IMG/VR virus record: IMGVR_UViG_3300021255_000139
Origin: a virus
Taxonomy: Duplodnaviria > Heunggongvirae > Uroviricota > Caudoviricetes
Reading direction: 5' to 3' (one strand)
DNA length: 64,000 bases
In this document: in pieces, positions 29,107-64,000 of the stretch
Numbering within the stretch: position 1 is the stretch's first letter
Layout of the letters: every line of letters starts with the position of its first letter
Made by a program: the position numbers and the translations under genes
Notes under the pieces: model-generated
Databases searched by the model: none
Told to the model about the DNA's origin: nothing
What the model saw: the letters and a program-made list of their open reading frames with translations, nothing else

Positions 29107-29727
29107 ATGAATATCGAGAAAATCAAAGATGCATTGAAAGTTTTTAGCTGTGAAGTTATCAGCCAGAATGAAAATGAAGCAGTTATCAAAGTATCGAAGA
29201 AAACCGTGAAACTGGCAGATATCCCGAATGGATCAACTTTTAAAGTCGGGAAATTCGAGTTTATTAAACTTGGAGATGCTGCAGACGGAGAAACAACAGC
29301 GGTTATTCTGAAAGAATTTGTAAAGAGGATGGAATTTGGCAAGCATAACAACTACGCCAAAAGTGATGTGCGTAAATATCTCAACAGTGATTTCCTGAAG
29401 GAACTTGAAAAAGAAGTTGGTGCAAACAATATATATGAACATAAGGTTGATTTGATTGCAAATGACGGTCTGAAGGATTATGGAAGTGTAAGAGATAAGG
29501 TTAGTCTGATCACAGCAGAAAATTACAGAAGATATCGTGAGTTTCTTCCGAATTATGGTGATTGGTGGTGGACTGCAACACCATATTCATGTGAATCCAA
29601 CGGTTATGCGTCCAACGTTTGTTACGTGTACTGCAGCGGTTCTTTGGGCGGGATCGACTGTGGCGATTCGGAGGGTGTGCGCCCGTTTTGCATCTTTTCA
29701 TCTTCAATCTTTGTATCTTGTGAATAA
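29107..29727 (+). CDS. DGR1 variable target protein (C-type-lectin-like VR at C-terminus)
   Basis: C-terminal codons 29602-29690 match TR1 except at TR adenines. Confidence 0.7.
   Translation: MNIEKIKDALKVFSCEVISQNENEAVIKVSKKTVKLADIPNGSTFKVGKFEFIKLGDAADGETTAVILKEFVKRMEFGKHNNYAKSDVRKYLNSDFLKELEKEVGANNIYEHKVDLIANDGLKDYGSVRDKVSLITAENYRRYREFLPNYGDWWWTATPYSCESNGYASNVCYVYCSGSLGGIDCGDSEGVRPFCIFSSSIFVSCE
29602..29690 (+). repeat. DGR1 variable repeat (VR1)
   Basis: about 80-90 nt copy of TR1; differences almost exclusively at TR A positions. Confidence 0.75.
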
Positions 29728-29748
29728 ATTAGAGAGTAGCCGAAGTCT

Positions 29749-30123
29749 ATGGACGATAATGAAAAACTAAAAATTGTCAATAAAGCTAAAGAGTTGTTCG
29801 ATTGCACTTTGACAAATACATCAAATAGAAAAAAGTTTCCAGCAAAATACAGAGTTCTTGTTGAAAGAATGCAAAATAAAAGTATAGACATTTATGACTG
29901 TATAATGGATGCGAATCGAAAAAGGCTATACATTCCAAAGGAGAAGATAGATAGAAATTCATTACAAACACAAGCTATTGCTGATTGTGACAAACTTAAT
30001 ATGTTTATTGAAACTGCAATGAATCACAATCTAATTTCTGCCGGATTGTGCGATGAATGGTCAAAGAAAGTAAAAGATGTTAAATACATGACGATTGCAT
30101 GGAGAACAAACGATAATAGCTAA
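29749..30123 (+). CDS. avd: Avd (accessory variability determinant)
   Basis: 124 aa helical basic protein between VR and TR; KFPAKYRVLVERMQNKSIDIYDCIMDANR resembles Avd family. Confidence 0.55.
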   Translation: MDDNEKLKIVNKAKELFDCTLTNTSNRKKFPAKYRVLVERMQNKSIDIYDCIMDANRKRLYIPKEKIDRNSLQTQAIADCDKLNMFIETAMNHNLISAGLCDEWSKKVKDVKYMTIAWRTNDNS

Positions 30124-30125
30124 CT

Positions 30126-30224
30126 CAGGTTATGTGTTGTAGCGTCCAACGTTTGTTACGTGTACAACAACGGTACTTTGAACAGGAACGACTGTGACTA
30201 TTCAAAGGGTGTGCGCCCGTTCTG
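30126..30224 (+). repeat. DGR1 template repeat (TR1)
   Basis: seen directly; AAC-rich; shared GC-rich 3' end GGGTGTGCGCCCGT (IMH-like). Confidence 0.75.
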
Positions 30225-31365
30225 GTGGATAGCGAGGGCGAGTAAGCAATATGCTGAAAGGAGAACAACATCATCAAAAGAACACATAACCTTTCCAAAT
30301 AAAAAGGATAAATACAAAGGTTTAAATAAAATATTGACAGACTTTCAAAAAGTCGTAGACTTCGGAAACTTATATAGAGCATATAAGAAAGCCAAAAAAG
30401 GTAAAAGAAATAAACGAAGTGTAGTAAAATTCGCCATTGTAGCACTTGAAGGTATTCATTTACTAAGAGAACTACTGACAAAGAGAACATATACAATTTC
30501 TTCATATGGCGAATTTACTATATTTGAACCAAAAGAAAGATTAGTAAAGTCTGGAGCATTTAAAGATAAAGTAGTTCAGCATTCATTGTGTGATAATGTC
30601 TTATTACCAACAATGGCAGAGTTATTTATAGAGAATAATTTCGCCGGACAAATAGGGAAAGGAACATTATTCGGACTGGATCATTTGAAGAACGATATGC
30701 TGCAATTCCATAAAGAACATGGAATGGACGGCTATATTCTAAAATGCGATATTACTAAATTCTTTTATACCATAGACCATGATGTATTGAAAAGTGTTGT
30801 CCGAAAATACTTTTCGGATGAAGGTATTATTTGGTTATGTGATCTATTTATAGATAGTACAGATGGAGTAGGAATACCACTTGGAAATCAAGTAAGTCAA
30901 GTATTCGCACTAATGTACTTAAATGAATTGGATCACATTATAACAGAAGAATTACATATAAAGTATTATGGAAGATATATGGATGACTTTTATTTAATAC
31001 ATGAAGATAAAGAATACTTGAAATATTGTCTGAATGTAATTCAAGAGCATATTCATAGTTTGAAATTAACATTGAATGGTAAAACACAGATTATGCCGTT
31101 CAAAAATGGCATCAAATTTCTTGGCTTTCATACATATGTGACACCAGAAGGAAAAGCAATACGGAAACTCAAAAATGAAAATAAGCGCATGATTAAAAAG
31201 CGTTTATTAAAACACAGCAAACTTGTTAAGGCTGGAAAGATGACAAAAGAGAAGTTCTTTGAATCATATGAATCGTGGAAAAATCACGCATCACATGGAA
31301 ACTGTATTAAGCTGATTTATCAAATGGATAAATATGTTGAAGAACTATTCAAGGAAACAAAATAA
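30160..31365 (+). CDS. DGR reverse transcriptase (RT1)
   Basis: RT motifs ILKCDITKFFYTIDH, IPLGNQVSQVFAL (DGR-type GxxxSQ), YGRYMDDFYLI; ORF-track N-terminus is translated TR, true start probably about 30250-30340. Confidence 0.8.
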   Translation: MYNNGTLNRNDCDYSKGVRPFWWIARASKQYAERRTTSSKEHITFPNKKDKYKGLNKILTDFQKVVDFGNLYRAYKKAKKGKRNKRSVVKFAIVALEGIHLLRELLTKRTYTISSYGEFTIFEPKERLVKSGAFKDKVVQHSLCDNVLLPTMAELFIENNFAGQIGKGTLFGLDHLKNDMLQFHKEHGMDGYILKCDITKFFYTIDHDVLKSVVRKYFSDEGIIWLCDLFIDSTDGVGIPLGNQVSQVFALMYLNELDHIITEELHIKYYGRYMDDFYLIHEDKEYLKYCLNVIQEHIHSLKLTLNGKTQIMPFKNGIKFLGFHTYVTPEGKAIRKLKNENKRMIKKRLLKHSKLVKAGKMTKEKFFESYESWKNHASHGNCIKLIYQMDKYVEELFKETK

Positions 31366-47978: not shown

Positions 47979-50411
47979 TTAAACTTTGGCAATATAAGCA
48001 GAATGAACAAATCCATATTTGCCATTATACTTAACATAATACCAAGTATCGCCGTTATTAGCTTTCACGGAGTCACAAACTGATACTTTTGTTCCTTCCG
48101 TAAGCGGAGAGAAACTACAAGTCTTATTTTCTGTTCCAGCCCACGTCCGAACATTTAGTGAATCCGCTGTGACTTTTCCTGTCCATTTTGCTACCGTATT
48201 CAAAGTTCCAGAAGTGGAAGTAGATTTCTTAGTGGTCGTAGGAGTTATTGTACCAGTAGTATCATACTTCGGAGTGATAAATCCACGAATATACCTACCG
48301 TTGATTGATAACTTTCTCTGTTTTACCGAATTAGAATAGTTCCCTTCAACAACGAGGAAGTAACCCTGATCTTTATGAACTTCTGTAACAGTTCCGATAT
48401 GATCCGGCGCACCAGTATTATCACCAGCACCACTATCTTCCCAATCATAGATGACTGCATCGCCCGGAGATGGAACATATGAATCTTGTTCAACCCAAAC
48501 ACCCATTTCTTTTGCTCGTTCGATAATATAGTAGCAACTTATTTCAATCGGCATTATCGCAGTATAACCAAGTTTGATTGCCAAAGCAGACCATGTACAA
48601 GCGCACCACGGCCATCCATATTCCATCTTAGTTCCACGAGGGAATTTGCCAGTATAGGAATTGTAAATATCAATAATAGATTTGTACGACCCGTCAGCTT
48701 CATTCTTGCCAATCCAACTATTTATGAGATTAACAACCGCACTTCTCGAATACTTTCCAGTTTTTTTCTTGGTCGTAGTTGTTATCTTTTTTGTTGTCGT
48801 AGTAGTTTTCTTCTTAGTAGTTGTTGCTTTCTTAGTTGTTGTAGCAATCTTTTTTGTAGTAGTTGAAGCAACCTTCTTAACCCAGCCAGAATGAACAAAT
48901 CCATATTTGCCATTATATTTGATGTAATACCATACGTCACCATTGTTTGCCTTTACAGAGTCACAGACTTCAATTTTCGTTCCTTCTTTAAGGGGAGAAA
49001 AACTACAAGTTTTATTTTCTGTTCCAGCCCATGTTCTTACGTTTAATTCATCGGCAGTAACTATACCAGTCCATTTAGGAATAGTATTTAATTGACCAGA
49101 AGTAGATGCTTTTTTGGTTGTCGTGGAAGTATTTGAAGAAGTTCCACCAGATTTAGAACCAATGCCAAGGTTAGTTGCAGTATGATGATTATCATTCAGA
49201 AGAATATCGCCCGGCAGAAGATAATCAGCACTTGTAAGATATTTGCTATCAGTTAAAACCTGAAATCCGGCATTCTTATATGCAGTACGCATATTTCCAG
49301 TATATGATGCTCCGATATTTTTTAATGCAGCAATACCAAGCAGATATCCGACAGCTTTAGTATTTGCGATTACTCCAGCAGAACAATCAGCTTCACAAGC
49401 AGTTGTAATTTTTGAAGGACGATAACCGACTTTCTGCAACTGCGTCCAATAAGTATCTCTCTGATATTGATCATATCCAATCTTATTATTGCTGGCTGCT
49501 TCGATTGCAAGTTCAGCAATCAATTCACGAACTTCTTGATTTGGATATCTTAATACACAACTCCAAGGACGGGAATACCAACTTCTGATACACCATTCAT
49601 TCCCTGTTTGATCTCCGGCAGCACCACCATGAATACCACCGTTTTCATCCCCACCACTGTTGGAGATTTTGCCATAATAGTTATTAAAATTCACACTCAC
49701 GATAGAAACCTCCTTTTTCGTAGTGGTTGTTGTCGAGTTACTTGCTGATGCTTTAGGAAGATATTCTTTAAGCCATTGATATACTTTCTGCTGACGTGTT
49801 TTATATGCTCCAACTTGATTACCAGTGTCGGTTTTACAAGCAGCATATAAATTATCAAGTGTATAAGGCTTTTTAGTTTTTTGCACTATCCTTTTTAAAG
49901 CGGAGTTGCCACCTTGGTGTACAAAATTTGCCGCTTCAAATAAAGCATCAATTTCAGTTATTCCAAGAGTTTCAGCATATGCAATATACTGATTGAGCAA
50001 TTTAACGATCCTCTGATCTTGAACTTTTTTACCCTCTGTAGAACTGATAATGTTCACAATAGCTTTTGCTTTCGCAGAAGTTTTTGAAGGGTTATAACCT
50101 GACCAAGAAGATTTCTTTAAATCAGAAGCTAATCCAGCATTATCATATTTGGCGAAAACATTTGGATATTGATCCTTAATATCTTGTAATAGTGCTTTTG
50201 CATAATTCTTAAACTCTTGAAATGCACCTATCGTTATCGAATCTTCTGCAGATGAGTTGGTGTAGGCATTTGTATAGTCGTTATAACGTCTTTGACCATA
50301 AATCTGCCCTCCGGTCTCCACTGCTCCGATGATATTGATAAGGACTTGCATTTGAGCATCTGTTATTTTTGCCATAAAACACCTCATATTGTTATAAAAA
50401 AGACGGTGCAA
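47979..50411 (-). CDS. multidomain cell-wall hydrolase (CHAP peptidase + Thr/Lys linker + 2 SH3b)
   Basis: CHAP-like WPWCACTWS...PDHIGTV; two SH3b repeats (WYY(I/V)KYNGKYGFVHS); TTTKK low-complexity linker. Confidence 0.6.
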   Translation of the reverse strand: MHRLFYNNMRCFMAKITDAQMQVLINIIGAVETGGQIYGQRRYNDYTNAYTNSSAEDSITIGAFQEFKNYAKALLQDIKDQYPNVFAKYDNAGLASDLKKSSWSGYNPSKTSAKAKAIVNIISSTEGKKVQDQRIVKLLNQYIAYAETLGITEIDALFEAANFVHQGGNSALKRIVQKTKKPYTLDNLYAACKTDTGNQVGAYKTRQQKVYQWLKEYLPKASASNSTTTTTKKEVSIVSVNFNNYYGKISNSGGDENGGIHGGAAGDQTGNEWCIRSWYSRPWSCVLRYPNQEVRELIAELAIEAASNNKIGYDQYQRDTYWTQLQKVGYRPSKITTACEADCSAGVIANTKAVGYLLGIAALKNIGASYTGNMRTAYKNAGFQVLTDSKYLTSADYLLPGDILLNDNHHTATNLGIGSKSGGTSSNTSTTTKKASTSGQLNTIPKWTGIVTADELNVRTWAGTENKTCSFSPLKEGTKIEVCDSVKANNGDVWYYIKYNGKYGFVHSGWVKKVASTTTKKIATTTKKATTTKKKTTTTTKKITTTTKKKTGKYSRSAVVNLINSWIGKNEADGSYKSIIDIYNSYTGKFPRGTKMEYGWPWCACTWSALAIKLGYTAIMPIEISCYYIIERAKEMGVWVEQDSYVPSPGDAVIYDWEDSGAGDNTGAPDHIGTVTEVHKDQGYFLVVEGNYSNSVKQRKLSINGRYIRGFITPKYDTTGTITPTTTKKSTSTSGTLNTVAKWTGKVTADSLNVRTWAGTENKTCSFSPLTEGTKVSVCDSVKANNGDTWYYVKYNGKYGFVHSAYIAKV

Positions 50412-50436
50412 TAATTCGCACCGCCTTGATTAATAG

Positions 50437-51231
50437 TTATTTCCATCTAAGGATTTCTGAAATTTTTCTACTCTTATTTTTCTTTGAGTAGTCTGGTTTG
50501 ATTCCAGTATAAATATTATTCGTAATACTAGCATGACCACCGTCATAAACAATATAATCATAACCAGTATAAACAAACGTGTGGCTATAGTCTTTGAATG
50601 TTATAATATCTCCGACTTCAAGTAGCCGTTTATCAACAGCCTGTTTTACAGTTAAACCGATCGGTTTACCTGATGTAATTCTTTCAAAATAGGTTTTTAT
50701 TGCTCCCGTGTAGCAATGTTTGAAAGAACCATTTTTACCCCAAAAGTTACTGAAAGAAATGCTAAGATGTTTTAATCCCCAACGACAAGGAACAACACAA
50801 GTAATACTTGCTTTCTTTTTACCTTCTACGGTCTTTTTTGCCTTTTCAAAAGTTGAAAGTTCCGATTTATAACCATACTCAAAATATTTGCCATTAGCTT
50901 TTACAAATGTATGTATCTGTTCGAGATAGTCAACAAATTCTATTGCTTTGTCTGAAATACCAACCACATAAGAAGAATTTACAAATCCATATTTTCCATT
51001 ATATTTGATATAATACCAAGTCTCTTTTTTGGTTGACAATATTGCATCACAAACAATCACAATTCCACCCATTTTAATAGGGCTGAAAGAACAATCTTTT
51101 GAACTTCCAGCCCAATCTTTAACAGGGGTACTTTTGTTTAATTTACCTTTGAACTTCTCTGATTTATTTGGTGCAGTTTTCTTAGAAACGTAAAACACCT
51201 TATCGCTGTTTGCAGTAATCTTTCTTATCAT
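50437..51231 (-). CDS. SH3b + papain-like (NlpC/P60-CHAP-like) peptidoglycan hydrolase
   Basis: SH3b WYYIKYNGKYGFV; C-terminal Cys/His pattern FKHCYTGAI...SHTFVY...GGH. Confidence 0.45.
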   Translation of the reverse strand: MIRKITANSDKVFYVSKKTAPNKSEKFKGKLNKSTPVKDWAGSSKDCSFSPIKMGGIVIVCDAILSTKKETWYYIKYNGKYGFVNSSYVVGISDKAIEFVDYLEQIHTFVKANGKYFEYGYKSELSTFEKAKKTVEGKKKASITCVVPCRWGLKHLSISFSNFWGKNGSFKHCYTGAIKTYFERITSGKPIGLTVKQAVDKRLLEVGDIITFKDYSHTFVYTGYDYIVYDGGHASITNNIYTGIKPDYSKKNKSRKISEILRWK

Positions 51232-51319
51232 GTAATCACCTCATTAAAATATTGTTGTAACCCCTCTATTTCTCACGCCATCTTAATGAGATTGGTTAGC
51301 ATTCCCAATACGATTTATG

Positions 51320-51478
51320 TTATTTTTGTCTTTCTTTCATTTCCGCAATAGCACGATCACAAGCAATCATGCATATACGGTAAATATCGTCTCTGTCTTG
51401 TTTCTTAATAACATTGATTTTCGCAAGTTCGGTAACACGTCCGATAAGATCACGTTTCTCGAATGCGGTCAAATCCAT
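51320..51478 (-). CDS. small protein (52 aa), not in ORF track
   Basis: ATG preceded by GGAGG RBS on minus strand; MDLTAFEKRDLIGRV... Confidence 0.4.
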   Translation of the reverse strand: MDLTAFEKRDLIGRVTELAKINVIKKQDRDDIYRICMIACDRAIAEMKERQK

Positions 51479-51524
51479 ATTAATCCTCCAAAAATTATCA
51501 AAAATTGATGATAAAATGTATCTT

Positions 51525-51926
51525 TTATTTTACATCAATCTTACTTTCTCGAACGACTGTTTCGATATAATTATCAAGGTAAGCATCGAAGTTTGTGTAA
51601 ACTGATTCAATAGCAGACTTCATTTCACGAGAAATAAGTTCTTTTGCTTTATCTATCGCCATCTGTTTTGCAATCGCTTGTGCTTCTGCGTCAAATTTGC
51701 CCTGATGCTTCATAGTATCGACATACGTCTGCGAAACAGTCATAACAGCCACACTAATAGCTTCTCCTGCGTAATCAATAAGATTTTGTACTTGCTCACT
51801 TTCAATATTATCCTTATTCTTCTGAATAATAGATTTTACAAAATTCGCAAAGTAAACAGTCACAAATGGAAGAATACCAGTTATGACCAAATACATAAGC
51901 TGTTGAATAAATTCCTTAAAAGTCAT
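51525..51926 (-). CDS. holin-like membrane protein
   Basis: N-terminal TM helix LMYLVITGILPFVTVYFANFV then charged domain; sits immediately upstream of endolysin. Confidence 0.4.
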   Translation of the reverse strand: MTFKEFIQQLMYLVITGILPFVTVYFANFVKSIIQKNKDNIESEQVQNLIDYAGEAISVAVMTVSQTYVDTMKHQGKFDAEAQAIAKQMAIDKAKELISREMKSAIESVYTNFDAYLDNYIETVVRESKIDVK

Positions 51927-51940
51927 TTACATTACCTCTT

Positions 51941-52888
51941 TCATTTTAAAAGTTCATTGACCTTCGTTTGAACTTCTTTATAATCTGAACCAAAAAATCT
52001 TTTCCTTACATCACCGCTCCCAGCATATCCACTAATAACATACCTTGCAGAAGCAGCAATATAATCAGAACGTCCTTCATTAGATAAATAATAATTAACT
52101 AATCTTTGGACATCGCTATAATGTTTACCGAGAGATTTCTTTCTTGTGTCTCCATTTCCGTATTTCCCACGTATAGTTTCAACAGCCAAAAAAGAAAGTT
52201 CTTTAGATATGTTGAGATTTGTGTTAGGTTTTTGTTCCTTAATTTCAGATTGTTTATTACATTTTGAATAACTATTCCATTGATCCTTAGTAAGATATCC
52301 GATATCCATATCAAGATTTCCAGAATAATTATTTAATCGACCGCTTGATGAATACTGAAAAATCGTGGGGGATTTCCATGCGCCATATCCATAAGAGTCA
52401 GTCCAAGGATTTGTTTGATATCCAGTCCTTTCATAATTCTTGTATTGTGCTACCCAAAGTGGATTGTTTTTAGCAATAATACTCCAATTATGTTGTCGGC
52501 ATACTGACTTACTCATATAAATAAAAATCCTTATACCCGTTTTTTCAAATATTCTATCAGCAAACTTCTTACACCATGATACAGACTTATTACTACCAAA
52601 TAGAGGATTGTTTTTTCCTTCCCAATCTAAACATAATAATCCTGTGCCGATTTTTGATCCAATATTTTTTAAGAAGTAATCTGCTTCATTATTTGCATCT
52701 TTTCCGTTTGCATAATGATAAAAGCCAATCAGTTTTTTTGACTGACTGGCTTGTTTATAATGTTTCTCAAAAGATGGATTTATGTAATGAGTTCCTTCGG
52801 TAACTTTAATAATTACAAAATCGGCAGCTATTTTTGTTATGTCTAAGGTTTTTTGATAATTTGCAATATCTATACCTTTTAAACTCAT
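51941..52888 (-). CDS. endolysin: GH25 muramidase + 2 CW_7-like cell-wall-binding repeats
   Basis: GIDIANYQ...FVIIKVTEG...GFYHY GH25 pattern; C-terminal repeats RGKYGNGDTRKKSLG..Y..VQ..VN. Confidence 0.8.
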   Translation of the reverse strand: MSLKGIDIANYQKTLDITKIAADFVIIKVTEGTHYINPSFEKHYKQASQSKKLIGFYHYANGKDANNEADYFLKNIGSKIGTGLLCLDWEGKNNPLFGSNKSVSWCKKFADRIFEKTGIRIFIYMSKSVCRQHNWSIIAKNNPLWVAQYKNYERTGYQTNPWTDSYGYGAWKSPTIFQYSSSGRLNNYSGNLDMDIGYLTKDQWNSYSKCNKQSEIKEQKPNTNLNISKELSFLAVETIRGKYGNGDTRKKSLGKHYSDVQRLVNYYLSNEGRSDYIAASARYVISGYAGSGDVRKRFFGSDYKEVQTKVNELLK

Positions 52889-52897
52889 GTTGCCACC

Positions 52898-54091
52898 TCA
52901 TTTCTTTAACATACGATTTACTTGATTTTGAACTACGGTATATTCATCTCCAAGTAATTGTTTTCGAGTTTCATTAACTCCATATTTATTATTTATTACT
53001 TCCTTCGCTGTTTTAATAACCCAGTTCACCTTGTCTTGGACTTCATTATAAATATTTCCAAAATATGCTTTACGAGTTTCGCCACTCCCAGCATATCCAG
53101 AAAGTACAAAATCAGCACAAGCACGAATATAATCATTGTGTCCATTGGAAGAAAGATAGTGATTTACAAGTTTTTGAACAACACTATATCTGTTACCAAG
53201 CAGATTTTTTCTATCGTTCCCAGAACCGTATTCCGCATGAATAACACCTACAGCAAGAGCAGAATCTGAACGATTTTTAATACTATCGTTTTTTGCTCCA
53301 ACGAGAGTAAAATCACGAATTGCAACCCACCCTTTATACGTGTCATAATCGCCAATAGGTTTATTGTTTTTGTCTACTTTGAACTCATGTTTATAATTTC
53401 CAGTAGTGATAAATCTTCCACCAGAATCAAAGAGAATTATATTTCCATTTACAATATCTCCAACAATAGCAACGTGACCCCAATCAGACCAATCGTCACA
53501 ATTATTAGTAGTTACGGGATTACGGAAAAATTGAATAAGATCACCAATTTGCAAATCCTTCTGATTTCTAAAGAAAGGACACTTCCTTGATTTTATATGA
53601 CTTTTGTAAGCACAGGAATTTGTTGGTTGATTATTTCCACCATAAAGACCAGCCTTATAAAGCAAAGAATCCATTCCATAGTTGCAATTTGTTGTTTTAT
53701 CTTTGCTTTCTTTGCCACAAAGATCATCAATTCGACCCCAATTACATCTTCCTTTTTGATTGTTGATATAGAAGGGAGAGCCACCAGCCCATTTTCTATA
53801 CCACGTTCCATTATTGTAATCAAATCCAAAAATAGACATAAGTCCAAAAACATATTCCGCTATTTCGTGCAACTCTTCAACTGTCTTTACACTCGCAGTT
53901 TTCCCATTCCATTTTTTAAAAACTCCACCAAGACTATTGAGATATGCACTATATCCACCATATGCTTTCAACTTAGAGATATAGTTTGTACAATTAAAAT
54001 CTGATTTATGTGCATCTATTATTTTCTGTGTAGCATTGCTAAATTGTTTCACTTGTGATACCTTTTCTTTCACTATAAGTTGACGCAACAA
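52898..54091 (-). CDS. peptidoglycan hydrolase (papain-like peptidase) + 3 CW_7-like repeats
   Basis: Cys/His CNYGMDSLLY...WGHVAIVGD; three repeats YGSGNDRKNLLG.RY..VQ..VN. Confidence 0.55.
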   Translation of the reverse strand: MLRQLIVKEKVSQVKQFSNATQKIIDAHKSDFNCTNYISKLKAYGGYSAYLNSLGGVFKKWNGKTASVKTVEELHEIAEYVFGLMSIFGFDYNNGTWYRKWAGGSPFYINNQKGRCNWGRIDDLCGKESKDKTTNCNYGMDSLLYKAGLYGGNNQPTNSCAYKSHIKSRKCPFFRNQKDLQIGDLIQFFRNPVTTNNCDDWSDWGHVAIVGDIVNGNIILFDSGGRFITTGNYKHEFKVDKNNKPIGDYDTYKGWVAIRDFTLVGAKNDSIKNRSDSALAVGVIHAEYGSGNDRKNLLGNRYSVVQKLVNHYLSSNGHNDYIRACADFVLSGYAGSGETRKAYFGNIYNEVQDKVNWVIKTAKEVINNKYGVNETRKQLLGDEYTVVQNQVNRMLKK

Positions 54092-56859: not shown

Positions 56860-57210
56860 TTAAATCAAAGAACTCAATTCTACAATGCATTCTTTCAATT
56901 CATTGTTTTCGGTTCTAAGTTTTGCGATAATTTCAGCATCAGTCATGTCTCTTTCATCAGTCCATGCAATACCATAAGCCCAAAACTTATCAAAATTATC
57001 AATAATGTTTTGTTCGCTTGTAGCTGCACTGTCAATCTGGAAGAACACTTCGTCTGCAGTTTGCACTTCATATTCTTCGCCGTTCTCATTACGAGTTTCA
57101 GTCTTTATATTTTTTCTAAGCCATACATCGGCAATCCCATTGTGGGGCATATAAAGAACAGGAACGAGTTCAATATCAAGCGGCATTAACGTTTTGCAAA
57201 TATTGCTCAT
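56860..57210 (-). CDS. acidic hypothetical protein
   Basis: ORF. Confidence 0.35.
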   Translation of the reverse strand: MSNICKTLMPLDIELVPVLYMPHNGIADVWLRKNIKTETRNENGEEYEVQTADEVFFQIDSAATSEQNIIDNFDKFWAYGIAWTDERDMTDAEIIAKLRTENNELKECIVELSSLI

Positions 57211-58507
57211 AAAATGCTCCCTTCCTTCTTTCCAACTTATAAATACGTACCATCTTTCTGTAATTTATAAGTTTTATATCACGAGAAATTATGTTACGTG
57301 AAATTCTCATACATCTATCTACCTGATACTTGTCTTTCAAGTGTTTAGAGTTTGTATGAACAATATAGCCATAATAACTACACATTGTACGAGCATCTTT
57401 TAGAGAAACAGGAATATGATTATCTATCTTTTTATTTATTCGTCTTAACTTACGTGCAATTTTAATAAATACACTCTTACGAATAGTAATACGGTCACGA
57501 TAGATTTTATATCCCATCATGTCGATGAAACATCCTCGCTCTTTATTTCTTTTCTTATCAAAATAAACAAATCTTTGAATACCCCAATTAGGTTTAATTT
57601 CAAGACCAAGTTCATTTTTAAAGAAATTAATAGTCATTTCAACAGCCATTTTCAAGTGCCGTTTATTTTGACCACAAAGTAGAATATCATCCATATAGAA
57701 CAGTTGGTGTGAGATCAACCGTTTTTTCACTTTTGTTTTTGTTGTGAAAAGATTCTGTTCCATATAATGATAAGCGTATGATAAATAGTAGTTACACAGC
57801 CATTGTGATAAATGAGAACCAATAGATAGTCCACCTTCAGAAAATGAATCAATCATCAAGTCAATCAAATAGATAAGATCAAGATTCTTTATATCCCGAT
57901 GAATATACTTTTTAATTTTGTCATGTTCAATACTTGGATAACATTTTTTAACATCAAGTTTTACAAAGTATTTTACTGAACCCGGATTACGATCAATCCA
58001 TCGTTGGATTGTACGAACACCGTAAAGTTGTCCTCGTCCGGGAATACTTGCACATTGATACCTTCCAATTTTCCTATTAAACATTTTCTGACAAGCATTT
58101 ACAATTACATACTCGTAACATTGTTGAAGCATATGTTCAATTCCAATTTGTCTTACTTTGCCAGAATTGCCATCATATCTTTCACTAAATCTTATTGGTG
58201 GAAATGTCACATCATGGTTCTTTATGTGTTGACTCATATCTTTTGATATATGATCTATAATGAACATAAGTCCGTCAACACCATGTAGATCATATAAATC
58301 TTTTACAATGGATTTTGGCACATTTTCATAATGTGCCAAAAATCCAATCGTTTTTGTCTTGTTGTATTTTCTATTTAAACAATCAAGAACACAACCTTTG
58401 ATATAACTAACATCGGTTATATCTATATCTTTACAATATGTAATCATATTGATTATCCGCTCTCTTTCTGGGTCAAATAGCGTTCGATATAAAAATTTAC
58501 TTGCCAA
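57176..58507 (-). CDS. DGR reverse transcriptase (RT2)
   Basis: VKLDVKKCYPSIEH, LSIGSHLSQWLCNYYL (GxxxSQ), LFYMDDILLCG. Confidence 0.8.
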   Translation of the reverse strand: MASKFLYRTLFDPERERIINMITYCKDIDITDVSYIKGCVLDCLNRKYNKTKTIGFLAHYENVPKSIVKDLYDLHGVDGLMFIIDHISKDMSQHIKNHDVTFPPIRFSERYDGNSGKVRQIGIEHMLQQCYEYVIVNACQKMFNRKIGRYQCASIPGRGQLYGVRTIQRWIDRNPGSVKYFVKLDVKKCYPSIEHDKIKKYIHRDIKNLDLIYLIDLMIDSFSEGGLSIGSHLSQWLCNYYLSYAYHYMEQNLFTTKTKVKKRLISHQLFYMDDILLCGQNKRHLKMAVEMTINFFKNELGLEIKPNWGIQRFVYFDKKRNKERGCFIDMMGYKIYRDRITIRKSVFIKIARKLRRINKKIDNHIPVSLKDARTMCSYYGYIVHTNSKHLKDKYQVDRCMRISRNIISRDIKLINYRKMVRIYKLERRKGAFYEQYLQNVNAA

Positions 58508-58618
58508 GAATCACCCTAATATATTTTAATCAAGAGATTAGGTAATCTAATCACGTAGTTGTATTATGATTAGACGGTTTATGTGTTTCCCAAGGGTGTA
58601 GAAACCACACCCCCTCAC

Positions 58619-58733
58619 CAGAGAGTGCCGGGCAGAAATGTTCCAGTTCGTATTCGAAAGACCATTGTTCAAATTCCGATTGAACAGACCAGCATTCGCA
58701 CCATTGTTCAGATTGCCGAACGCCAGCACAAAT
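58619..58733 (-). repeat. DGR2 template repeat (TR2)
   Basis: about 115 nt; AAC-rich on minus strand; matches VR2 except at A positions. Confidence 0.8.
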
Positions 58734-58765
58734 TTTCTTTTACACATAAACCCCATATAGATAAA

Positions 58766-58791
58766 TTGCCGACTGCTTTCGCAGTCAGCAA
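58766..58791 (-). promoter_or_regulatory. hairpin between VR2 and TR2 (GCCGACTGC-TTTC-GCAGTCAGC)
   Basis: seen directly. Confidence 0.35.
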
Positions 58792-58902
58792 AAAAGTTAC
58801 TTCATTTTTACATTTTTTATCCGTCAGAAATTGGCTTCATGTACTTTCAAAAGAAACCTACGGTTTCTCTTGACTTTTCCCTCTGGCTTATCACTACCTG
58901 AA

Positions 58903-60486
58903 TTATGCAGCTACTACGCCACATCTTCCAGTAGCAGAGAGCCGGGCAGAAATGTTCCAGGACGTAGCCGAAAGACCATAGTACAAAAACCGATAGAACA
59001 GACCAGCAAGCGCACCATTGTTCAGAGCGCCGAACGCCAGCACTTCATATGTTCCGTCAGTGTTGTTCATATAATTTCCGTCACAATAACCAGTTGTAGA
59101 AGAAGCAGCTAAAGCAGAAGCACCTCTCACACAAGGATTATTTGAATCAAATCCCATCTCAGAAGGATATTTCCACGCATTCGCTCCACCGGGCATATCA
59201 TATCCATCAACTGTTACATAATTAGAATTAGTTGCAGCATTAGACAGATTTGTGCAATCATAACAAACATCATAATGACCTATCATCGGATCACCAGACT
59301 GTCTATATTTAGCATTTCCAAGCACTTCATACTGACCAATGAACATTTCTACGCCGAAAAATCTACATGGATTTTGACCATTGGTATTGTTATTCGGTGA
59401 TCCACAAGTGCCAAGAACATCATCAGTCGCACCAGTTCTCCAAGGCATATTTGAAATAATACAAGTTGTATCAGTATCAAATGCGTTTCCGTCCAAATAA
59501 ACAGCAGTATACGTTGTGCCATCAACAGTAACTTCTTCAACTTTTGTAACAGTACGTCTGTCTGCTACGTTGTGCATAGAAGCATTATTTCTATCATTAG
59601 ATGTACCACTCAAATGACCAATAGAAGCAACACTCCCTACAAGATATTTCGCAGACTGACCAGATGCTATTAAAGCACGATTAACGCCAGTTTCAGCTTT
59701 TGTAATTGCTACCTGATTGTTATAACTTGTACATCCAGCCATAATAGATTGCGAATCTCTTGTTGCAAAAACCACTTGGAAAAGCGTTTCAAGTAAAAAT
59801 GTATCTTGAATAGTAGTCGCACAATACTGACTTCCTTTTGTATGGAATGTAGTTAATGCAACATTATGACTCATGTGATGATATGCTGCAGCACCACTAA
59901 CGCTCATAGGAGTTCCAGAAGTGCCTTCAGAAGCATAGTATTTTGCAATCGGAATAAATGGACGAATTGTCTTATCTGAACGAACAGCACCCCCCATCGG
60001 GAAGTAACCATCTCTTTTTGTATCAGAAACAGAAATGGTTTCACCAGTTGCATCAATATCAATCTTCACATAAGAAGTGCCAAAAAGCACATAAACATCC
60101 TGTGTGAATTTATCAAATCCATCTTCACCTTCAAAATAGTCAACTACAAATTCGCCATCAGCATCAACATGACCATTGACAGTGAGTCCATTAAAAATAG
60201 CATAATCGTCAAAGTCATTTCTTGCAGCCACCTTATCAGTGGAAGGACGTGCGATCATTCCAACAGCATCGTCCCTTCTGATTCCAGCAGGAGACGGAGA
60301 TGTGCTAAACTTGTTGAAGAAAACACTGAAAACTTTTCCATTTTTCTTTGTGTTAAAATAGTTAGCCGCAACCTGTGTTTTTAGTGTTGCGTTATTATTC
60401 ATCGTCATCATATTGGCGATAATAAAATCTGTATTATCTCGAACTTTATCAAGAGTTGATTTGTCAGCTATATAAATCTTACTCAT
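58903..60486 (-). CDS. DGR2 target: putative receptor-binding/tail protein with C-terminal C-type-lectin-like VR
   Basis: C-terminus LAFGALNNGALAGLFYRFLYYGLSATSWNISAR is the mutagenised copy of TR2-encoded LAFGNLNNGANAGLFNRNLNNGLSNTNWNISAR. Confidence 0.7.
   Translation of the reverse strand: MSKIYIADKSTLDKVRDNTDFIIANMMTMNNNATLKTQVAANYFNTKKNGKVFSVFFNKFSTSPSPAGIRRDDAVGMIARPSTDKVAARNDFDDYAIFNGLTVNGHVDADGEFVVDYFEGEDGFDKFTQDVYVLFGTSYVKIDIDATGETISVSDTKRDGYFPMGGAVRSDKTIRPFIPIAKYYASEGTSGTPMSVSGAAAYHHMSHNVALTTFHTKGSQYCATTIQDTFLLETLFQVVFATRDSQSIMAGCTSYNNQVAITKAETGVNRALIASGQSAKYLVGSVASIGHLSGTSNDRNNASMHNVADRRTVTKVEEVTVDGTTYTAVYLDGNAFDTDTTCIISNMPWRTGATDDVLGTCGSPNNNTNGQNPCRFFGVEMFIGQYEVLGNAKYRQSGDPMIGHYDVCYDCTNLSNAATNSNYVTVDGYDMPGGANAWKYPSEMGFDSNNPCVRGASALAASSTTGYCDGNYMNNTDGTYEVLAFGALNNGALAGLFYRFLYYGLSATSWNISARLSATGRCGVVAA
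58934..59047 (-). repeat. DGR2 variable repeat (VR2)
   Basis: 3' end of 527-aa ORF; every difference from TR2 is at a TR adenine. Confidence 0.8.
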
Positions 60487-61257: not shown

Positions 61258-61788
61258 TTAAGATTGTTCATTGCCATCAGTTTCAATAACGCCATCATCT
61301 AAGTACATAACGCCACCTTCTACACCAAGCGTATAAACTTGACCGTCTAAATCATCTGTCATTGAATTTAATCCGGCAGTCAGATTATCTACATTTTGTG
61401 CAGCACTGTTCGCAGCAGCAGCAGCTTGTGTGGCAGCTTCGGCAGCTTGATTAGCAAGAGCAGCAGAAGCAGTCATACTCGAACTGAATTGTCGCACTTC
61501 ATCATAATATGAAGCCATAACTGTATTCAGTTTTTCCATTCGTTCGTTATTGACAATAATAGGAAGATCAAAGAAAGTGTGGACACCATCGCCTTGTCTT
61601 ATATTAAAATACTTAATCGTAGGATTATCTTCATCGGTAGTGATTTCAACTGCGATTTCTCGTTCGTCCAAAATCAGAACATTTTCTACCGCTTGATAAT
61701 CTGCCGTAGTACCAGTAAGCAGTTTAATAACAGCCATAGAATCCTCCTTATTCTCCGAGTAATCTAATCGCCGGAGTTCCACCATCAA
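61258..61788 (-). CDS. tail-fibre-like structural protein
   Basis: N-terminus paralogous to 61748 ORF; C-terminus YTLGVEGGVMYLDDGV. Confidence 0.4.
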   Translation of the reverse strand: MMVELRRLDYSENKEDSMAVIKLLTGTTADYQAVENVLILDEREIAVEITTDEDNPTIKYFNIRQGDGVHTFFDLPIIVNNERMEKLNTVMASYYDEVRQFSSSMTASAALANQAAEAATQAAAAANSAAQNVDNLTAGLNSMTDDLDGQVYTLGVEGGVMYLDDGVIETDGNEQS

Positions 61789-62449
61789 AATCTATACCAG
61801 TGTATTCAGTCAGTCTCCTTGCGATAGTAAAGCAATCTATATCAATGATTGTCCTAACTCGTTTGTGGGGCTTTTCACCATCACACACGATTGTACATGA
61901 GCGATAAAGTGCTTCTGCCCGTCTAAAATAATCTTCTACGCTGTCCAGAATTTGTTCCGAATTTGCGAGAAGTGAATTTTCAATGATGTCTTGGATTTCG
62001 TCTTTGAGATCAGATACATCCTCTTTGTAGCCTTGTGCATCACTTGCATATTGTGCAGCATTTGAAGCAGCAGCTATCGCATTTGTATAATACTGACCAG
62101 CGGAATCCTTTGATTGTCTTGCTTGGGTCGCATAGTCATTTGCAGACCTTTCGCTTTGCTTTGCTTGATTAGAATAATACTGTGCATTGTCGTATTCCTC
62201 ATTCTCTCGTGAGTTCGTGTCTCCACGAGCATAACTTCGAGTTTCGACAAGGAGACTATGAACAGCATCATAATCAAAACTGTATGGCAAGTCATTCCAC
62301 GGGGTTTGACCATCGCCAATTTTCATTTTCCAAGGTGTACTTGATCGTGGCACTACTTCAACCGCCAACTCTCTTTCTTCGAGAATTGGGTTTCTTGCAG
62401 ACCAGTTTGCAGCAGTATCACCACGGATTCTTATTTTTATATAAGCCAT
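61748..62449 (-). CDS. tail-fibre-like structural protein
   Basis: ELAVEVVP...KIGDGQTPWNDLPY N-terminal module shared with 61258 ORF. Confidence 0.4.
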   Translation of the reverse strand: MAYIKIRIRGDTAANWSARNPILEERELAVEVVPRSSTPWKMKIGDGQTPWNDLPYSFDYDAVHSLLVETRSYARGDTNSRENEEYDNAQYYSNQAKQSERSANDYATQARQSKDSAGQYYTNAIAAASNAAQYASDAQGYKEDVSDLKDEIQDIIENSLLANSEQILDSVEDYFRRAEALYRSCTIVCDGEKPHKRVRTIIDIDCFTIARRLTEYTGIDFDGGTPAIRLLGE

Positions 62450-62501
62450 ATGTCACCTCTATATTAAATAAGAGTGGGAGAGTAATTCCCCCACTCATAT
62501 A

Positions 62502-63842
62502 TTATCTACGCCAAATATTAAGAGAAGTCGTATAGTTAGCATCTAATGCATTGATAGAATTATAGTTACTCAAACCAGTACAACTATGTATTGCACCAAA
62601 GTAACCATTCTGACTACCTTCAATCTTACTGAATATATTACCGTCATAGAATGCCGGAAGATTACCAGTCAAATTTGCACATTCGTAGAACAAAGCACCA
62701 ACATATTTCAGTTTAGTGTTTTTTGCACTACCATGTAAGAAAGTAGCAACGACTTGCGTAATATTTGTGAAAGCAAACAAAGCATATACACTTTCCAGAG
62801 TAGCAATGCAGTTCGCCATAAATGTAGCATTTATAGTTCCAGTCAAATGATCAATTCCATAGAATGCCCTTTCTGCCGTTACAAGTTGAACCTGTCTTGC
62901 AAAAAGAGTTTCAGGAACATTACAAGCTGGAATATTATAACATTCTCTAAATACATCATTGACACTTGTCAACGCAACGCATTTCGTAAAGAAGTTTGGT
63001 GCGACCAAATAATTCAATCCAGTATTCTCGTCATAATACGCTTGATCCAAACCACGACATTTATAGAACATAGAAGCAACCGTTGTCAGCGCAGTATATC
63101 TATCTGTAATGCTTGAAGTATAGAACATATCTTCCGGGAATCCACCTGTCAGATATTCACAATCATAGAAACAGTAAGAAGCATTCTGCAAATTCAAACA
63201 GTCAGCCAAAAATCCTTTTTGTGTAATATTACCGTTTTCATCTTTTGTTCCAGTTGGCAGTTCGCCAGTCAGACCAAGACAACCATAGAACATATAAGAA
63301 ACATTCTGTAATGTCTGTCTGCAACTATTGAACATATTAACAGGAATAGAACCTTGCAACAGTGCGCAGTTATAGAACAAATATGACGTATTCACAAGAG
63401 AAGTACATCCTGCAAACATATTACTTGGAATAGAGAATGTGTGATTCGTGTTATTATGGAAAAATCCAGCCACATTTTGTAAGTTCGGACAATTAGTAAA
63501 TAAACTGTCAGCAACTCCGACCATAGCTGAATTATCAATGTCATTACCTGTCAGCATAGAACATCCAGCAAACATATACGATGCATTAACAATGTTATTT
63601 TTACATGATTCAAAGATTGAAACCACATTTCCATTTACAGTTTTATATGGAATACAACCTGTTAATCCAGCACAGTTCTGGAATGCGTATGATGTATTTT
63701 GTAACAACGTATTATTCTCAAACAATGCAATCGAAAGAGAATTACCATATTCATCGTCTACACCATTATTATCATAATAGCAGTATTTCAATGCCCTATT
63801 TTCTGAAGCATGATAGAATAGATAACTGACATCTGTAAGCAT
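62502..63842 (-). CDS. BspA-type leucine-rich-repeat protein (possible tail/adhesion protein)
   Basis: about 20 repeats of about 22 aa of the form ...YMF.GC..LTG.... Confidence 0.55.
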   Translation of the reverse strand: MLTDVSYLFYHASENRALKYCYYDNNGVDDEYGNSLSIALFENNTLLQNTSYAFQNCAGLTGCIPYKTVNGNVVSIFESCKNNIVNASYMFAGCSMLTGNDIDNSAMVGVADSLFTNCPNLQNVAGFFHNNTNHTFSIPSNMFAGCTSLVNTSYLFYNCALLQGSIPVNMFNSCRQTLQNVSYMFYGCLGLTGELPTGTKDENGNITQKGFLADCLNLQNASYCFYDCEYLTGGFPEDMFYTSSITDRYTALTTVASMFYKCRGLDQAYYDENTGLNYLVAPNFFTKCVALTSVNDVFRECYNIPACNVPETLFARQVQLVTAERAFYGIDHLTGTINATFMANCIATLESVYALFAFTNITQVVATFLHGSAKNTKLKYVGALFYECANLTGNLPAFYDGNIFSKIEGSQNGYFGAIHSCTGLSNYNSINALDANYTTSLNIWRR

Positions 63843-64000
63843 CGGTAATTTTGATAAGAAATCCTCAAAATAACCTTCAACTTTTGTATTTCCAAAGAAA
63901 CCATATAAAGTATATCTGCTACTACTATTAGGAATAAAATCAGTATTTGCAATACCTATGGTTCGGATATTTGGTGCGCCAGCAAAGAAATCTGATGTAA

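Follow-up and report, generated by a model that had tools for sequence, protein, structure and literature searches.

The DNA analysed here is a 64,000-nt stretch, referred to below as the window, from the IMG/VR virus record IMGVR_UViG_3300021255_000139 (Caudoviricetes), and all positions given are those of the whole window. Two diversity-generating retroelements (DGRs) were found on it. The present work concerns the second, DGR2, all parts of which are encoded on the minus strand and which comprises a target gene with a variable repeat (VR), a template repeat (TR) and a gene for a reverse transcriptase (RT). The other element, DGR1, lies 28 kb away on the opposite strand. The parts of DGR2, together with the open reading frame (ORF) that overlaps its end, are as follows.

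58903–60486, minus strand: target gene, encoding a 527-aa tail-module protein with a diversified C-terminus (PHROG 17147, PHROG 5302, AlphaFold model matching 5vf4)
58936–59043, minus strand: variable repeat VR2, inside the target gene and 11 codons short of its stop
58936–58952, minus strand: invariant 3' end of VR2, TTTCTGCCCGGCTCTCT, resembling an initiation of mutagenic homing (IMH) sequence, with one fixed difference from the TR copy
58622–58729, minus strand: template repeat TR2, with 25 A, chiefly in AAC and AAT codons
58451–58621, minus strand: non-coding spacer between TR2 and RT2, conserved among close relatives
57176–58450, minus strand: RT2, a DGR-type reverse transcriptase of 424 aa (RVT_1, PHROG 1423, motifs)
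56860–57210, minus strand: acidic 116-aa ORF overlapping the 3' end of RT2, a syntenic tail-module gene

TR2 and VR2 are direct repeats of 108 nt each with an offset of 314 nt, and the same pair was recovered by an independent repeat search. The gap between VR2 and TR2 is 206 nt, and that between TR2 and RT2 is 171 nt. A first-pass annotation, made from the sequence alone, had recognized this pair of repeats but had given them a length of about 115 nt; it had also claimed that they differ only where the template has a coding-strand adenine. Aligned, the two copies show 14 mismatches, and TR2 carries a coding-strand A (a plus-strand T) at 14 of 14. With A at 25 of the 108 nucleotides of TR2, the hypergeometric probability of this outcome is P=3e-11. 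All 14 mismatches are located at codon position 1 or 2 of AAY-type codons. Translated in the VR frame, TR2 reads VLAFGNLNNGANAGLFNRNLNNGLSNTNWNISARHS; the AAC-rich peptide previously assigned to TR2 is merely this reading of the template and is not a supported gene. This 69-aa ORF was rejected as a gene, as it has no family match and consists of the template in the VR frame running on into the RNA elements. A search for further VR2-like targets, proposed in the same annotation and based on matches to the non-A positions of TR2, found none in the window.

At the 3' end of VR2, every relative reads ...SARLSATGRCGVVAA, and this GC-rich segment is invariant. Position 58940 is T in the VR and the corresponding position 58626 is A in the TR, which gives H/L at the protein level. 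Because this difference is the same in all relatives, it is fixed and not mutagenised, and on the sequence comparison it is better read as an asymmetry of the IMH/IMH* type than as a product of mutagenesis. By analogy with IMH/IMH* of Bordetella, this end of VR2 would direct homing.

The listed ORF of RT2 extends to a TTG at 58507 (57176–58507). As the database relatives are 423 aa long, translation probably starts at the ATG at 58450, which would give a protein of 424 aa. RT2 matches Pfam RVT_1 at 1.7e-17 and the reverse transcriptase family PHROG 1423 at 2.8e-69. The motifs SIGSHLSQ (IGSHLSQ) and YMDD, both of which had been pointed out earlier, agree with the [LIV]GxxxSQ motif 4 and the YxDD of the DGR clade, and they align with IGSLTSQ/YMDD of PDB 8ub7_A and with PLGNQVSQ/YMDD of RT1, the enzyme of DGR1. 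The 8ub7_A chain is a 328-aa reverse transcriptase, which we take to be the Avd-binding enzyme bRT of the Bordetella phage. RT2 matches it over the core only (E 2e-6), and RT1 over its full length (E 4e-36). RT2 is about 95 residues longer than this chain, and its C-terminal tail, as read from the sequence, is rich in lysine and arginine. RT1 and RT2 share 28% identity across 137 aa of the palm, which refutes the previous assertion that the two are unrelated; they are distant relatives belonging to different DGR lineages. The accompanying assertion that TR1 and TR2 are unrelated holds.

The target ORF matches PHROG 17147 at 8e-123 and also PHROG 5302, 'tail protein', and no Pfam domain was found in it. 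Among its neighbours, Phage_fiber_rpt (tail-fibre repeat) and Mtd_N domains occur. The AlphaFold model of the target, built with 49 homologues, has a pLDDT of 90.5, and its sole significant fold match in the PDB is TaqVP, a DGR variable protein of Thermus aquaticus with a C-type-lectin-type variable tip (5vf4; Foldseek E 2.7e-7, probability 1.0). TaqVP differs from the target in having only 12–13% identity to it (TM-score 0.36–0.48), another N-terminal part and a cellular instead of a phage-tail context. The earlier placement of VR2 in the lectin-like tip of the 527-aa protein agrees with this fold and with the tail-module position of the gene, and the tail context and the modelled fold make the target a probable receptor-binding protein. 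The repeats, RT2 and the target together support the original view of DGR2 as a second complete DGR on the minus strand, with an RT, a TR and a VR of its own.

Variation in natural populations

The 90%-identity cluster of the target contains 62 distinct sequences. In 16 close homologues from this cluster, the hypervariable columns, with 5–10 residues each, are those of the Asn/Ile codons of the TR, and the last 15 residues of the target are invariant. On a 165,775-bp ENA contig (165.8 kb; locus L021), TR2 is fully identical to that of the window and VR2 differs only at template-A sites. The TR2 of loci L001 and L002 differs at one G/C site and that of L017 at four non-A positions, and the VRs of the window, L001, L002, L017 and L021 all differ at A sites. 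Each of the non-A variants of the TR, namely AATGGT in the window, AATGCT in L001 and L002, and AATGCCTTG in L017 (GCC-TTG), is mirrored in the cognate VR. This copying of non-A differences from a TR into its own VR points to a continuing transfer of sequence from TR to VR, and to judge from these comparisons DGR2 is evidently active in nature.

At L003:3383-3490 and L016:2718-2825, a single repeat copy was observed that has a VR-like 5' end and a TR-like 3' end, and the 314-nt interval is gone. These chimeras represent either loss of the DGR by recombination between VR and TR or an assembly artefact at a hypervariable repeat. If they are genuine, the cassette can be lost by recombination, as might be expected of a decaying relic whose A-bias is a trace of former activity and whose RT has become non-functional. 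It is nevertheless extremely unlikely that DGR2 is such a relic. The ORF and motifs of RT2 are intact, genomes with an identical TR and 99.8% overall identity still have VRs that differ at A sites only, and the diversity of the target within its 90% cluster is hard to reconcile with a dead element.

RNA elements around the template repeat

Several candidate RNA elements were located on either side of TR2.

58852–58868, no strand assigned: palindromic hairpin with a T-run, terminator-like, about 35 nt after the target stop and retained with changed sequence in locus L004
58766–58791, minus strand: hairpin with a GAAA loop and 11 pairs including one G.U, terminator-like (dG -11.2, z -4.6)
58742–58752, minus strand: upstream strand of a long-range helix, GGTTTATGTGT, 12 nt upstream of TR2
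58594–58612, minus strand: stem-loop directly 3' of TR2 (GGGTGT/ACACCC), at the place of the Avd-binding stem-loop in canonical DGR RNAs
58576–58586, minus strand: downstream strand of the helix, ACACATAAACC, spacer nucleotides 36–46

The spacer between TR2 and RT2 is presumed to be the 3' part of the DGR RNA. Together, GGTTTATGTGT and ACACATAAACC form a perfect 11-bp long-range helix that brackets TR2, and a helix as long was obtained in about 0.6–0.8% of shuffles (P about 0.006). Locus L004, in which the RT is 63% identical, keeps the helix in place through a compensatory change of G:C to A:T. In more distant members this place is taken by other helices, for example TACAACGC:GCGTTGTA, CACGGCGCA:TGCGTCGTG and TGACGTGC:GCACGTCA. 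Over the whole lineage of RT2, a bracketing helix was found at P<=0.05 in 27 of 53 distinct loci, with 24 different sequences. It was the ungapped-helix test on short flanks that proved informative. RNAduplex on long flanks performed no better than on shuffled sequences, RNAalifold returned no structure from the spacer alignment, in which the diverged sequences are poorly aligned, and no Rfam match was found in the DGR2 spacer. A template:primer pairing beside the helix, UUGGG:CCCGG, was considered and dropped because it is not conserved in L004. Among loci L022–L081, the downstream strand, 20–30 nt after the TR, is often followed by TTTCGC (or CCGTACC) and then by another hairpin; in the window-type sublineage, GTCTAAT is present instead.

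Cis-primed reverse transcription in the Bordetella element requires the avd:Sp duplex named 'cPRT Stop', and 207 of 278 Avd-bearing DGRs have been described as having such a duplex (bioRxiv 10.1101/2023.10.23.563531). The helix that brackets TR2 is analogous to this duplex and may play the same part in DGR2, although its downstream strand starts at spacer nucleotide 36, and not at nucleotide 59 as in the Bordetella phage BPP-1.

The stem at 58594–58612 has 6 bp and is thus shorter than the typical 9-bp stem with a tetraloop. It is absent in L005-type relatives, and L004 has a stem of another sequence, GGGTGAAT/ATTCATCC, at the same place after the TR. Within 58562–58621, the minimum-energy fold of the isolated spacer shows that ACACAU of the downstream helix strand can instead pair with GUGUGG of the post-TR stem region. 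By analogy with the resting and active RNA states of the Bordetella element, this pairing may represent a competing conformation.

The hairpin at 58766–58791 is followed, after 13 nt, by the 5' strand of the helix, and a compensatory version of the hairpin is present in L004. In 25 of 49 lineage members, a GC-rich hairpin with z<=-2 lies between the stop codon of the target and the upstream strand of the helix. The most likely role of the hairpin at 58766–58791 is to terminate or attenuate transcription of the tail gene immediately ahead of the DGR RNA. The first-pass annotation had described it as lying where an Avd gene would otherwise be; the hairpin itself is real, with its 11 pairs, but it does not stand "instead of" Avd, being terminator-like and matching a hairpin that most members of the lineage have at that position.

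Accessory genes and the RT2 lineage

The only Avd gene detected in the window belongs to DGR1.

29107–31365, plus strand: DGR1 cassette, with VR1 at 29608–29690, Avd1 at 29749–30123, TR1 at 30142–30224 and RT1 at about 30334–31365
29749–30123, plus strand: Avd1 of DGR1 and the window's sole Avd homologue, matching PHROG 3206 'Avd protein of DGR' at 2.5e-20

That no Avd gene adjoins DGR2 had been claimed before, and the claim was borne out in several ways. At 206 and 171 nt, the gaps separating VR2, TR2 and RT2 are too short for an Avd-sized ORF, and no Avd was matched among the DGR2 neighbours with PHROGs. A phmmer search with Avd1 found only Avd1. A profile hidden Markov model (HMM) was built from 88 Avd homologues, a family that matches Pfam bAvd, and was run against all six-frame ORFs of the window and of 21 related loci; across all of these it again found only Avd1 (E 1e-48), and the check proposed in the first-pass annotation thus shows Avd1 to be the sole Avd homologue within the window. 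The Avd alignment was too diverged to serve as a query for loci.

At least 749 relatives of RT2 were found in the databases. A scan of the lineage with one genome per bacterial species gave 60 loci, from Lachnospiraceae, Bacilli, Erysipelotrichaceae, Collinsella, Bifidobacterium, Akkermansia and others. The layout VR-TR-RT is present in 56 of the 60, with the VR about 170–270 nt upstream of the TR and the TR about 200–330 nt upstream of the RT, and the repeats of the lineage show 829 mismatches at A versus 4 at non-A positions. The Avd profile had no match in the 784 kb of sequence within 8 kb of these relatives, which contains 6,520 ORFs (best E 0.24). Judging by the layout, the A-bias and the absence of Avd around the 60 relatives, the Avd-less arrangement is the rule for the RT2 lineage, which is large, resides in prophages of gut Firmicutes, Actinobacteria and others, and never has Avd nearby. 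A Megablast search of the DGR2 locus against GenBank phages gave no match.

Accessory-less DGRs, termed Architecture A, made up 29% of the 372 DGRs surveyed by Wu and colleagues (Wu et al., 2018, NAR 46:11, PMC5758913). DGR2 has the features of Architecture A1, namely target(VR)-TR-RT on one strand and no avd, HRDC, MSL or CH1 gene. It resembles that class in its gene order, in the VR at the C-terminus of the target and in the TR directly upstream of the RT, the assignment being made by layout. As to the Bordetella type (Architecture B), the avd gene in the cassette is lacking in DGR2 and the RNA duplex is present in the form of the 11-bp helix. Since an accessory-less architecture has already been published and the RT family is very large, DGR2 is a known kind of system, and its Avd-less layout is typical of the lineage and not new.

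The acidic 116-aa ORF behind RT2 was considered as a new accessory protein that replaces Avd in the RT2 lineage. In support of such a role, its family follows RT2-type RTs that are just 43% identical, with frames that always overlap or abut. However, the same family of about 115 aa is present directly after the tail gene in prophages L008–L010, which have no TR-spacer-RT. These prophages lack exactly the 1.5-kb TR-spacer-RT segment that is present in their sister L005. A comparison of L005:5615-7119 with L008:5027-5037 shows a clean presence or absence of 1.5 kb, in which the DGR-free version keeps roughly the last 100 nt of the RT; this retained end suggests deletion of the cassette. The ORF has an isoelectric point of 4.3, unlike the nucleic-acid-binding Avd, and a profile-profile comparison of its family with the Avd family (hhalign) gave a probability of 0.3%. 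Its confident structural model combines a beta-sheet with helices and lacks a helical bundle, and the PDB, Pfam and PHROGs gave no match. The accessory protein CH1 has been described as 160–169 aa long (PMC5758913), whereas the 116-aa ORF is shorter and also occurs without a DGR. The occurrence in DGR-free prophages and the lack of any relation to Avd led to its rejection as an accessory gene, a role that is very unlikely. In every case the family immediately follows either the tail receptor gene or the RT, and the ORF is a tail-module gene, neither a DGR component nor an Avd.

DGR1 has the canonical order target-avd-TR-RT, and 11 of 13 TR1/VR1 mismatches are at A. Its target is a 206-aa DUF6273 protein and not a tail protein; the neighbours are non-structural and include a PAPS reductase, a class-V aminotransferase, SPFH and, further on, a methyltransferase. 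In DGR1, GGTTATGTGTT at 30128–30138 pairs with AACACATAACC at 30281–30291 to form a bracketing helix. A 12-bp helix of the form AGGTT-N6-T : A-N6-AACCT, with covarying N6, is present in about 60 of 72 IMG/VR loci of the RT1 lineage (L082–L161). DGR1 thus resembles DGR2 in its genome, in its class of mechanism and in a nearly identical helix (GGTTATGTGTT:AACACATAACC compared with GGTTTATGTGT:ACACATAAACC), but it differs in its strand, its unrelated TR, its possession of Avd, its RT with full-length similarity to 8ub7_A and its non-tail target. The resemblance of the two helices may reflect a shared constraint, chance or a shared factor.

A shared factor would mean that DGR2 is not autonomous and that Avd1, 28 kb away, serves RT2 in trans, so that the two cassettes are functionally coupled. 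The helix is the main support for this hypothesis: GGTT-TATGTG-T of DGR2 has the format of GGTT-ATGTGT-T of DGR1 and of 60 or more loci of the RT1 lineage (AGGTT-N6-T), and most relatives in the RT2 lineage use other helix sequences. In addition, Avd1 is present in the same genome, with both cassettes on one 165.8-kb contig, and the window-type spacer has a stem-loop at the canonical place of Avd binding that L005-type relatives lack. The sublineage of DGR2 could in this way have adopted a canonical RNA module, consisting of the GGTT-N6-T helix and the post-TR stem-loop, along with the use of Avd1. Against this, the RT2 relatives without Avd within 8 kb (60 of 60) still show strongly A-biased divergence of VR and TR. 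The similarity of RT2 to 8ub7_A, presumably an Avd-binding enzyme, is weak (2e-6 against 4e-36 for RT1), and the helix prefers an alternation of purines and pyrimidines, so the resemblance may be due to chance or to a mechanistic constraint. Furthermore, no distant avd genes were found in the genomes of avd-less DGRs, and Avd-independent retrohoming has been proposed for some lineages (Wu et al., 2018; PMC5758913), although a genome that also holds a canonical Avd-bearing DGR, as here, is a case absent from that distant-avd profile search. On balance, coupling of the two cassettes through Avd1 is unlikely, and adoption of the canonical RNA module by the DGR2 sublineage is correspondingly doubtful. 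If true, one Avd serving two RTs of different lineages would be the first natural sharing of an accessory factor between DGRs.

DGR2 is very probably a self-contained and currently active DGR, with a target, a TR and an RT and without an accessory gene, and on the sequence evidence it would be independent of Avd. Several observations weigh against this interpretation. The genome does encode Avd1, the form of the helix is shared with DGR1 and the Avd-bearing RT1 lineage, and a stem-loop occupies the place of Avd binding. Next to the 3' end of VR2 there is only a weak hairpin (z -1.2), no priming site was identified for DGR2, and no promoter for the TR-RT transcript is evident. Finally, the activity is deduced from differences between assemblies.

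As a self-contained element, DGR2 would act in three steps. The transcript over TR2 and its flanks would fold, with the 11-bp helix clamping together the sequences that lie 12 nt before TR2 and 36 nt after it. RT2 would copy TR2 into cDNA with random misincorporation opposite adenines. The cDNA would then take the place of VR2 at the 3' end of the gene for the 527-aa protein, by which about 11 codons of the lectin-like tip would be rewritten. The expected outcome is an altered receptor specificity of the phage. DGR2 would have been acquired independently of the canonical, Avd-bearing DGR1.

Two cassettes in one phage genome

The 165.8-kb contig carries DGR1 at about 75–82 kb and DGR2 at about 107–110 kb, which indicates that the pairing of two DGRs is a stable feature of this phage of about 166 kb. 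Exact searches of IMG/VR found TR2 on only two short contigs and TR1 on none, and co-occurrence was therefore established through the ENA contig. Two proteins with Mtd_N domains are encoded upstream of DGR2 in the window (61748–64000, minus strand), and a VR was found in neither. At L021:366-8739, the contig encodes a 2,539-aa protein with Mtd_N and leucine-rich-repeat-like regions, of which the window ORF at 62502–63842 is probably a part. Lysis-type genes at 47979–54091 (minus strand) encode CW_7, CHAP, SH3 and endolysin-like domains with internal repeats. Together with GH25, which is also found among the lysis genes, these domains point to a Gram-positive host. One metagenome-assembled genome containing the target protein of this phage is labelled Bacteroidaceae (MBR4589579.1), probably through a binning error.

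Among known systems, BPP-1 of Bordetella (mtd-avd-TR-brt) resembles DGR2 in diversifying the lectin-like tip at the C-terminus of a tail receptor-binding protein. DGR2 differs from it in having no adjacent Avd and a target without a sequence match to Mtd. In Quimbyvirus, one RT and one TR act on two VRs (Benler et al., 2021, Microbiome 9:78, PMC8008677). That gut phage also has one structural target on the tail side and one in a non-structural neighbourhood, whereas the phage described here has two complete cassettes from different RT lineages. Among complete genomes that contain a DGR, about 10% were reported to have more than one (Wu et al., 2018; PMC5758913). Searches of the accessible literature found neither an explicit description of a phage that combines DGRs from two lineages nor figures on how rare this is, and it is plausible that this combination is uncommon. 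What is less ordinary about the present case is that a single phage has DGRs from two lineages, of which one has Avd and a non-structural target and the other lacks Avd and has a tail target, and that an Avd-less lineage keeps the helix that brackets the TR.

Thus, two hypermutation systems of different ancestry are maintained in a large gut phage, the first directed at a tail receptor-binding protein and the second at a small non-structural protein, which is useful for understanding how phages combine plasticity of host range with other variable functions. The RT2 lineage, with hundreds of members of which 60 were examined, constitutes a natural Avd-less set that allows one to ask what Avd does and what replaces it. 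It could also provide a simpler two-component system, consisting of an RNA and an RT, for engineered targeted mutagenesis.

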